In this document: piece after piece, positions 18,124 through 20,210 of the stretch
How the letters are laid out: each line of letters begins with the position of its first letter
Numbering within the stretch: position 1 is the stretch's first letter
DNA from: Pontiella sp.
GTDB taxonomy: Bacteria > Verrucomicrobiota > Kiritimatiellia > Kiritimatiellales > Pontiellaceae
DNA length: 20,210 nucleotides
Direction: 5' to 3'
Assembly: GCA_050290185.1 (NCBI GenBank)
Contig: JBNKHE010000014.1
Coordinates: forward strand, 1 to 20,210
Notes under the pieces: model-generated
Databases searched by the model: none
Seen by the model: the letters and a program-made list of their open reading frames with translations, nothing else
Told to the model about the DNA's origin: nothing
Program-made: the position numbers and the translations under genes

Positions 18124-18135
18124 AGAATTTAATTA

Positions 18136-18222
18136 GACAGAATAATTGAGTGGCAGAATAATTCTTCCCGATCGGGTTTTTAAATCATTTTGCCACAAAA
18201 TCATTCTGCCTATCGTTCTGCC
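18136..18222. repeat. 16-bp-period GGCAGAAT/ATTCTGCC inverted repeat element
   Basis: GACAGAATAAT (18136) and GGCAGAATAAT (18152), central CCCGATCGGG palindrome (18167-18176), then ATCATTTTGCC (18184), ATCATTCTGCC (18200) and ATCGTTCTGCC (18212). Confidence 0.75.
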
Positions 18223-18253
18223 GCTGTTTAGCGTCATTCCGCGATTTCTGCGG

Positions 18254-19531
18254 TTATCTATCAAGAAGCAATGTGCTTGAGCGCTTGGGGCCGACGGAGA
18301 GGATCGAAACCTTCACGCCGGTCAACTCTTCGAGGTAGGCGACATATTTCTTCGCCTGCTCGGGCAGTTCGTCCCAGCTGGTGCACTCGGTGGTGGGGCA
18401 GTTCCAGCCTTGGAACTCCTCGTAGATCGGCTTGCAACGTTCCAGTCTGCGGATGCTGGCCGGCACGTTGGTGATCCGCTCGCCGTCCACTTCGTAGGCC
18501 ACGCAGACTTTAATGGTTTCCACGGCGTCGAGCACGTCGAGCTTCATCAGTGCCCATTCGTTGATCCCGCCGACCATGGCGGAATAGCGGGCTATAACGG
18601 CGTCGAACCAGCCGCAGCGGCGCGGGCGACCCGTGGTCGCTCCGAATTCATGGCCGACCTTGGCAATGTGCGCGCCCATGTCGTCATGCAGTTCGGTCGG
18701 GAAGGGGCCTTCGCCGACGCGGGTAGTGTAGGCCTTCACGATGCCGATTACGCGGTCGATCGCATTTGGCGGGACGCCGGAGCCGGCCGGGGCGCCTCCC
18801 GCTCCGGTGCTGGACGAAGTCACAAAGGGGTAGGTGCCGAAGTCGACGTCGAGCATCACGCCCTGTGCGCCTTCGAAGAGCATTTCGTCGTCGTTCTGCA
18901 CGGCTTCGTGCAGCAGCGGAATGGTGTCGCAAATGAACGGACGCAGGTAGTCGGCTGCCTCCTGGACCTGCGGCAAGAAGGTGTCGATGTCCAGCGGCTC
19001 GGCACCCATTGCAACGAGGATTGCGTTTTTCCTTTCCGCCTGTTCCTTGACCATGTCGAGGAAGTCGTTTTCGAGAATATCGCCGAGGCGAAGGCCGATT
19101 CGGTCGGCTTTGTCCATGTAGGCCGGGCCGATGCCGCGCTGGGTGGTCCCGATCTTCTTGCCGGAACCTGCTTTGCCTTCCTTCGCGCCGTCGACCATCT
19201 TGTGGTATTGCAGAACGATGTGGGCGCGGTCGGAAATGAAGAGGCGGCCGTCGAGCTTGATGCCGCGTTCGACCAGTTCCTTAAGTTCACCCATCAGGCC
19301 GACGATGTCGACCACCAAGCCATTGCCGATTACGCACTTGCACGTTTCGCGCAGGATGCCGGAAGGGGTGAGGTGGAGCACATATTTCTGATCGCCGATT
19401 TCGACCGTGTGTCCGGCGTTGTTGCCGCCTTGGTAGCGTACCACCCAGTCCGCGTTGGCGGTCAGTACGTCAATGATTTTTCCCTTGCCCTCGTCGCCCC
19501 ACTGCGACCCGATCAATACTGTCTTCGACAT
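18254..19531 (-). CDS. purA: Adenylosuccinate synthetase
   Basis: QWGDEGKGK, GGNNAGHT, IGTT.RGIGP, EGAQG, GTYPFVTSS and GATTGRPRRCGW. Confidence 0.98.
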   Translation of the reverse strand: MSKTVLIGSQWGDEGKGKIIDVLTANADWVVRYQGGNNAGHTVEIGDQKYVLHLTPSGILRETCKCVIGNGLVVDIVGLMGELKELVERGIKLDGRLFISDRAHIVLQYHKMVDGAKEGKAGSGKKIGTTQRGIGPAYMDKADRIGLRLGDILENDFLDMVKEQAERKNAILVAMGAEPLDIDTFLPQVQEAADYLRPFICDTIPLLHEAVQNDDEMLFEGAQGVMLDVDFGTYPFVTSSSTGAGGAPAGSGVPPNAIDRVIGIVKAYTTRVGEGPFPTELHDDMGAHIAKVGHEFGATTGRPRRCGWFDAVIARYSAMVGGINEWALMKLDVLDAVETIKVCVAYEVDGERITNVPASIRRLERCKPIYEEFQGWNCPTTECTSWDELPEQAKKYVAYLEELTGVKVSILSVGPKRSSTLLLDR

Positions 19532-19614
19532 GTCGTATCTTCTCCGGTTGTCGGTTTTGAACTGATCGGTTACCGGAAGATCCGCATCTGTCCGCCTTTT
19601 TTCAGATAACCACT

Positions 19615-19653
19615 AAAAAAGCCCGCTTTTCATAAGGGGGCTTATGAAGCGGG
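19615..19653 (-). terminator. Terminator-like hairpin in the purA upstream region
   Basis: Minus strand CCCGCT-TCATAAG-cccc-CTTATGA-aa-AGCGGG-c-TTTTTT. Confidence 0.7.
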
Positions 19654-19654
19654 G

Positions 19655-19683
19655 AACTTAGGGAAACCCGTCCCATGCGTCAA
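19655..19683 (-). promoter_or_regulatory. Putative sigma70-type promoter for purA
   Basis: Minus strand TTGACG (19683-19678), 17-nt spacer, TAAGTT (19660-19655). Confidence 0.55.
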
Positions 19684-19791
19684 GTTTGGAGCGTGGATAT
19701 TGAATGTTAGGGGTGATCTCCACGGAGTTTATGCGTTTAGGAATAAAAACTTGCTTGTGAGGCCGTAGCCTCGGAGAAGGCTAATGCTTTT

Positions 19792-19820
19792 ACCGCGTAA
19801 GGTCCACGCGCTGGTTCGAC
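19792..19820 (-). mobile_element. Truncated attC-like half-site (R''-spacer-L'')
   Basis: Minus strand GTCGAAC-cagcg-CGTGGACC-TTACGCGG has the 7+5+8 layout of an attC left half. No complementary right half follows. Confidence 0.5.
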
Positions 19821-19888
19821 CATCTTGTTTTTATCCGTATTTATTACTTCATGCCGAGCATGTCTTTATCTAGTTCCGCTGAGTATAT

Positions 19889-20014
19889 TTAGTTTTTCTC
19901 CTTTTCCAGGGCTGTTACAATTCGTTTAAGCGAGGTCATAGCTGACCAAGCAACGCACACGAAGTATATGACTGTCAGTACTTTGAGAATATTGAATATT
20001 GCGTTTGGTGACAT
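19889..20014 (-). CDS. Small 41-aa single-pass membrane peptide (probable cassette cargo)
   Basis: Manual translation MSPNAIFNILKVLTVIYFVCVAWSAMTSLKRIVTALEKEKN*, preceded by AAGGAAAGAGGAactc. Shorter than anything in the ORF track. Confidence 0.6.
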   Translation of the reverse strand: MSPNAIFNILKVLTVIYFVCVAWSAMTSLKRIVTALEKEKN

Positions 20015-20129
20015 GAGTTCCTCTTTCCTTATTTTTTGTTAGTCAAACCATGGGTGTTTGAACATATGAGTAGAATAACAGTTTGATTATATTTCGAAAT
20101 TATAACGTAAGTTGATGTTTATAGTCTCA

Positions 20130-20210
20130 TTCGAATGCGGCGCTCACCAACTTTCGGGTGGACGGTAGCAGGCGGAGCCTGCGGACGGCCAGCCGGAATG
20201 TTGGTGCAGC
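20130..20210 (-). mobile_element. attC-like recombination site (R'' would lie beyond the window end)
   Basis: Minus strand GCTGCACC-AAC...GTT-GGTGAGC-gccgc-ATTCGAA. The 8-nt L'' pairs with the 7-nt L' leaving one extra base; imperfect inner stem with GCAGGC/GCCTGC; 5-nt spacer; R'-like heptamer. Confidence 0.65.

Follow-up and report, generated by a model that had tools for sequence, protein, structure and literature searches.

The DNA analysed here (the window, 20,210 nucleotides) is the entire contig C14 of a 3.58-Mb draft genome of Pontiella in 163 contigs, a genus that we take to belong to the class Kiritimatiellia; the contig stops at 20210. The host is placed in Pontiella by a genome of the same genus whose purA bears the name Pontiella desulfatans. 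Its last 2 kb hold, all on the minus strand, purA with a predicted promoter, a cassette with a small open reading frame (ORF) and a damaged attC site, and part of a second, gene-less element, which we call the mini-cassette (Table 1).

Table 1. Features at the end of the window. Slashes in triplets mark the cassette boundary.
Feature	Position	Strand	Details
purA, adenylosuccinate synthase	18254..19531	-	NCBIfam 605 bits, cut-off 402
Predicted purA promoter	19655..19683	-	-35 at 19683-19678, 17-nt spacer, weak -10
Decayed 3' half of terminal attC	19703..19749	-	L' 19718-19712, 6-nt spacer, R' ATT 19705-19703
Terminal cassette	19705..20135	-	431 nt, AT-rich, 121-nt leader before ORF
Presumed REP-like hairpin inserted in variable part of terminal attC	19763..19780	-	Single copy at up to 3 mismatches
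R'', spacer, L'' and stem of terminal attC	19788..19820	-	29/29 nt from AAC equal the species consensus
41-aa ORF	19889..20014	-	Purine-rich RBS-like stretch, hydrophobic N half, charged tail
Crossover triplet A/TT	20134..20136	-	A from mini-cassette, TT from next cassette
attC 3' part of gene-less mini-cassette	20136..20210	-	L'' with one extra base, variable hairpin, L', 5-nt spacer, terminal A

The motifs on which the original prediction was built are present on the minus strand: an L''-like box (20210-20203), an L'-like box (20148-20142) and, after a 5-nt spacer, ATTCGAA (20136-20130), then distally GTCGAAC (19820-19814), a 5-nt spacer and CGTGGACC (19808-19801). The stretch 19861-20100 is AT-rich as described, with a GC content of 0.358 against 0.543 genome-wide, and the cassette start TTCGA complements TCGAAC of the distal R'' box.

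By BLAST, the window end matched two distinct repeats elsewhere in the genome. For one of them, a search of the genome with 29 nt (19788-19816) gave 122 matches on 44 contigs at up to 5 mismatches; these 29 nt form the 5' half of a species-type attC of 82-83 nt with the layout AAC, 5 nt, 8-nt L'', stem, 7-nt L', 6 nt, GTT. The palindromes flanking variable ORFs that had been anticipated are there: the genome holds 100 full standard copies of this attC, and the attC profile gave 175 hits on 49 contigs, some of which are halves or duplicates at contig ends. The sites are homogeneous, tandem and in one orientation, with variable ORFs between them. On large contigs we found three open array starts (C5 start, C3 start and C5 end, one of them with intI) and three open array ends (C14, C1 and C7), and C4 holds one internal array. 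The window end is the distal tail of a large chromosomal integron array beside purA, in agreement with the proposal that the last, eroding cassette of an array lies here: further sites and integrase genes occur elsewhere in the genome.

The search for intI in this genome and its relatives, suggested as a check, was positive. Two genes, neither on C14, exceed the TIGR02249 integron-integrase cut-off (405 and 379 bits against 265). One, on C5, is divergent from the C5 array start and lies behind an attI-like site; the second is isolated on C3 at 254.4-255.8 kb. In the genus, 22 of 53 genomes passed the cut-off, as compared with 0 of 14 controls. Near-identical attI-like sequence heads two arrays, at approximately C3:5870-5910 and C5:3070-3110; the C3 head has no integrase and adjoins a gene that we take to be HU-like. 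A synteny search for the head of the C14 array found no partner, the genes next to purA on its upstream side in relatives having their counterparts at other genomic locations; the array may thus be part of a complete integron or a CALIN, a cluster of attC sites with no integrase nearby.

We read the orientation of the arrays from GC skew, anchored on the skew switch at a gene on C6 that, by its motifs, is presumably dnaA-like. In all seven array segments (C1, C3, C4, both ends of C5, C7 and C14), the lagging-strand template carries the attC bottom strand. This orientation is prone to excision; according to the accessible text of PMC5371416, just 5 of 30 sedentary integrons have it, none of them with more than 22 cassettes; the Pontiella segments are thus oriented opposite to the other 25. 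As far as Vibrio-type sedentary arrays and their integrase-less parts (CALIN) are described in the available part of PMC4889954, the Pontiella array resembles them in its many near-identical attC sites and AT-rich orphan cassettes, and both have an intI gene with an attI-like site and decay at the distal end. Unlike in the Vibrio type, the Pontiella attC sites are spread over at least four arrays. Our literature search found no description of integrons in Pontiella; supplements of integron surveys may nevertheless list Pontiella arrays.

Only the triplet is fixed in the main attC family. It was GTT in 146 of 154 scoreable profile hits and ATT in 2, and it is called the most conserved part of attC in the accessible text of PMC4889954. 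Beyond it, the R' cores vary freely: among the 100 standard sites, R' starts with GTTCG in 36 and with GTTCGA in 16, and fits GTTRRRY in 18. TTCGA is therefore one common start among many, and the suggestion that the array has GTTCGA-type cores is not supported.

At its distal end the array is bounded by a housekeeping gene, purA, and the terminal attC stops 20 nt short of the -35 box predicted for purA. This promoter was not called by the consensus scan; its -35 motif is visible in 17 of 19 relatives, and in the remaining two the site is cut off by the edge of the sequence compared. No attC lies upstream of purA in any of these 19 relatives (the top 19 loci from 40 genomes searched, with 164-1685 nt per locus), and their neighbouring genes vary, which makes the location of the array lineage-specific. 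On the upstream side of the purA promoter, the adjacent gene is highly variable among the relatives (loci L012-L030), and one of the 19 has a transposase-like fragment there. This spot looks like a rearrangement hotspot. On the other side, the region that separates purA from the next gene (18130-18230) contains several inverted GGCAGAAT-type motifs; the same motif makes up the inverted pair of each attI-like site.

As integron biology goes, the terminal cassette is ordinary. Its GC content is 0.36, its body is single-copy in the genome and no reading frame in it is longer than the 41-aa ORF. The make-up of the predicted product points to a likely small membrane peptide; it matched no NCBIfam family, its Atlas hits scored 0.84 or lower and it formed a singleton cluster. 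The attC of this cassette (19703-19820) is canonical on its 5' side, with AAC at R'', a 5-nt spacer and an L'' box with an extra base, and its perfect 29 nt are shared by 39 of the 100 standard sites. The 3' side is not canonical: R' is ATT, and the bottom strand folds with a z of -0.58 and without the L stem. The decayed half is 36/46 identical to the closest standard site and scores above 5000/5000 shuffles and below all 100 standard sites, in an alignment one base short. A site truncated after L'' is ruled out by the decayed L' and R' at 19718-19703. The hairpin in the variable part, which we take to be REP-like, has a counterpart in a long attC variant (C1:11020-11265) that carries a related hairpin at the same position.

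In two public runs of a single study, individual contigs span the purA promoter and both the decayed and the pristine half without differences, and the uneven terminal attC is therefore real. The join between the cassette and its attC lies across a repeat of roughly 31 nt and was bridged by none of the contigs listed; two runs with a small share (X5 and X7), whose short records cover parts of the terminal cassette, were excluded as evidence. In runs X1 and X2, contigs over 19793-20184 show that, in the population sampled, both of these sites are also joined to further cassettes, and the summed depth of the attC 5' half is approximately 200 times that of single-copy DNA, with a contribution from other strains. 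The uneven site is likely a dead hybrid whose 5' half was refreshed through exchange among repeats; the last cassette would then now be fixed.

The second repeat, the palindrome at the contig end, is different. It is 80/80 identical to C7:247971-248050 and near-identical to copies on C1 and C4; besides the window, the genome holds three full copies (C1, C4 and C7) and a fragment on C150. The palindrome site and the terminal attC belong to different families, and the true oddity lies in the palindrome site, whose crossover has A where G is expected. The mini-cassette of the window runs off the contig end, where an R'' box ending in AAC had been predicted 5 nt past 20210. The other copies do have an R''-like box, AAC (C4, C7 and C150) or AAT (C1), but it lies 6 nt before the L'' box. 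The imperfect palindrome was correctly recognized: the plus strand of 20125-20210, which is the attC bottom strand, folds with a z of -5.08 (0/200 shuffles as good), and the other strand with a z of -2.51 (6/200 as good). The C4 copy gave z values of -7.0 (bottom) and -4.6 (top). With an L''/L' stem, an extra-helical base and a more stable bottom strand, but without the canonical G/TT at R', the mini-cassette site would work like an attC, yet is not a canonical member.

Its boundary is sharp. The four genomic copies are identical through ATT and then diverge into four different cassettes, whose own R'' boxes complement their starts over 7, 7, 7 and 5 bp. Across copies the mini-cassette measures 115-175 nt: the short form (C4, 115 nt) consists of a small hairpin and the attC, and the long form (173 nt) of two hairpins, an inverted arm and the attC. 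In silico, the circle junction folds as one long stem (-36 kcal/mol). An Rfam scan of five loci gave only sub-threshold hairpin hits, and a promoter consensus scan of 19500-20210, which covers the part of the mini-cassette inside the window, gave nothing above shuffles. At the C7 array end (C7:245200-245255), a truncated first hairpin of the mini-cassette directly abuts a housekeeping gene.

Relatives of the mini-cassette occur well beyond this genome. A BLAST search of the class matched 38 of 401 Kiritimatiellia genomes at E values up to 0.001 and 24 below 1e-5, with two candidates scored per genome and a query that itself ended in ATT; in the 52 other Pontiella genomes the palindrome had no real match (4 weak hits). 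When the R boxes were left free, a scan found the mini-cassette in another Verrucomicrobiota genome (L042 and L058), with ATT in both true copies, and a metagenome scan gave 8 true mini-cassettes among 18 matches, 7 of them with ATT. The remaining matches, 22 of 24 from genomes and 10 of 18 from metagenomes, were unrelated sequence or not the mini-cassette, respectively. A metagenome pattern search on both L boxes gave 0 matches, and 42 matches to a 16-mer in viral contigs were chance-looking coding matches only.

We profiled 54 loci, 11 of which gave no hit; the other 43 gave 44 hits, 10 of them without a 3' arm. The 34 copies with a 3' arm end in ATT (29), GTT (2) or other triplets (3), counts that are descriptive because the copies are kin rather than independent (L079, L087 and L151 are near-identical). 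Two loci, L133 and L136, were left out of the tally because they duplicate L058 and the C7 copy. The start of the downstream cassette complements its own R'' in 7 of 14 copies, and the other 7 had no match within the fetched DNA. On the left, the 15 resolved junctions show G in 11 and A in 4. Three of the four A junctions have no attC upstream by eye, one being just behind tRNA-Val, and the fourth follows a short attC. At L135 (genome G464), one copy lies 8-10 nt behind tRNA-Val, and L134 (genome G130) carries two almost identical AT-start copies one cassette apart. Ordinary-looking attC sites with A at R' precede the mini-cassette start at L058:1140-1240 and L137:1450-1500, and A is therefore also found at left junctions inside arrays.

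From these comparisons we propose that the array tail consists of an A-ending, gene-less mini-cassette followed by the last small-ORF cassette with its decayed site, and that the mini-cassette was probably moved by the host IntI at A/TT. Because the element is placed precisely between the G and the TT of attC or attI-like sites, its junctions were presumably made by integrase. The proposal also draws on the four different cassettes that follow the four genomic copies and, as detailed below, on the co-varying boxes of the AT-start variants, the complementary outer spacers and the position behind intI in L058. The mini-cassette would likely recombine through its inner fold, which mostly has AAC at R'' and ATT at R'. 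Because this R'' still places a G on the bottom strand once folded, recombination with a G site would involve one G-T wobble alongside one normal pair, rather than the double mismatch of the published mutants, and the wobble is likely to let the A-ended site recombine with ordinary sites. The outer, perfectly paired A-type fold would instead favour A targets. In the circle, the A end would pair perfectly with an inverted copy near the element's own start, so the A would tend to be kept; carrying no gene, the mini-cassette may well be a hitch-hiker on the integrase. Counting against this reading, the spacers are 6 and 5 nt here, as compared with 5 and 6 nt in the main family.

Published work on IntI1 also counts against this proposal: in the accessible text of PMC2811028, the first base of the triplet must match between partners, failing which recombination drops by 10^3-10^4. 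In the same work, the bottom-strand AAC is cleaved between A and C, G1-to-A substrates are still cleaved and a T2-to-A change is tolerated. According to the same text, both complementary positions of the attC mutants were changed together, and the triplet is absolutely conserved in nature.

The identity rule gives some weight to another explanation, that recombination takes place while the site is an ordinary G site and that the A is written in afterwards, repeatedly, by template switching from the inverted outer arm, with A-type copies locked as anchors. In 10 of 11 copies, with five spellings, the inverted 5' arm has a spacer perfectly complementary to the final spacer, and the sole exception is a GTT copy; L085, which lacks the outer arm, also has GTT. 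However, G-type donors are rare (2 of 34 copies and 0 of 4 in this genome), and the C4 and C1 copies still end in A although they lack the outer arm. In L058, moreover, the mini-cassette is the first cassette behind an intI N terminus (tblastn E 1e-4), which suggests recent movement. We consider this explanation unlikely.

Less probable still is a non-autonomous element that targets attC sites and depends for its movement on an enzyme other than IntI, for example a REP-associated Y1 transposase or a recombinase of the IS1111 type. The feet of the internal hairpins carry what we take to be a REP-like motif, the genome has four matches to Y1 transposase, and such an enzyme would fit both the copies outside arrays, including the one directly behind tRNA-Val, and the pair one cassette apart in L134. 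The mini-cassette contains a subterminal inverted pair of 14-15 bp, but its very ends are not inverted repeats, and it obeys the cassette rule, with an extra-helical base in its L box and R''-like boxes that co-vary with its first bases. The variants that start with AT after G (L134 twice, L139 and L145) have matching changes in both internal R''-like boxes, which locates the boundary where integrase cuts, with G on one side and the two bases that follow on the other.

Finally, a single array family with GTTCGA-type cores, in which the terminal palindrome is an ordinary member, is highly improbable: GTTCG is the commonest R' start and GTTRRRY fits few sites, but the cores vary freely past the triplet, and the palindrome, with 4-5 copies and no BLAST match to the main family, is part of a gene-less unit.

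Our preferred reading, movement by the host integrase at A/TT, can be set against known systems. With canonical attC sites, as described in the accessible parts of PMC2811028 and PMC5027507, the mini-cassette site shares the imperfect palindrome, the L box with one extra-helical base, the more stable bottom strand and a TT cassette start that complements its own R''. It differs in an R' that begins with A, in its 6/5 spacers and in a second, perfectly paired R''-like arm. Gene-less cassettes of Vibrio likewise have no ORF, are multi-copy and are conserved between species, and selfish or regulatory roles have been proposed for them in the available text of PMC1382264 and 10.1101/2023.11.21.568050. 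There, they are mostly promoters of apparently some hundreds of bases (controls 450-650 bp), whereas the mini-cassette has just 30-90 nt beyond its attC, is almost entirely hairpin and ends in A. Cassettes can also insert outside att sites at a three-base motif, attG, with the consensus GWT (10.1101/2022.09.11.507474, accessible part). Its second base, T or A, recalls the TT- and AT-start variants of the mini-cassette. Unlike at attG, the three copies without a visible upstream attC have A at the left junction, as an A-type circle would predict.

We found no published natural attC of the ATT type in a literature search of mostly openly accessible papers, and this family of gene-less cassettes with an A crossover is apparently unpublished. 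The first base of GTT is the only sequence identity that integron recombination reportedly needs and is described as invariant, as far as the accessible text of PMC2811028 goes; here, a natural family that keeps A spans a bacterial class and sediment metagenomes. It is possible, although we put this forward only tentatively, that the family represents a second recombination key: an A-type, payload-free cassette with a perfect circle-junction hairpin that enters G sites by wobble, inserts elsewhere at AWT rather than GWT, spreads by parasitizing the integrase and alters which of its neighbours are excisable. Searches anchored on GTT will miss or mis-split cassettes that end in A. The family offers ready-made substrates for asking whether wobble relaxes the first-base rule, whether A and G sites recombine in separate pools and whether a gene-less cassette can behave selfishly.
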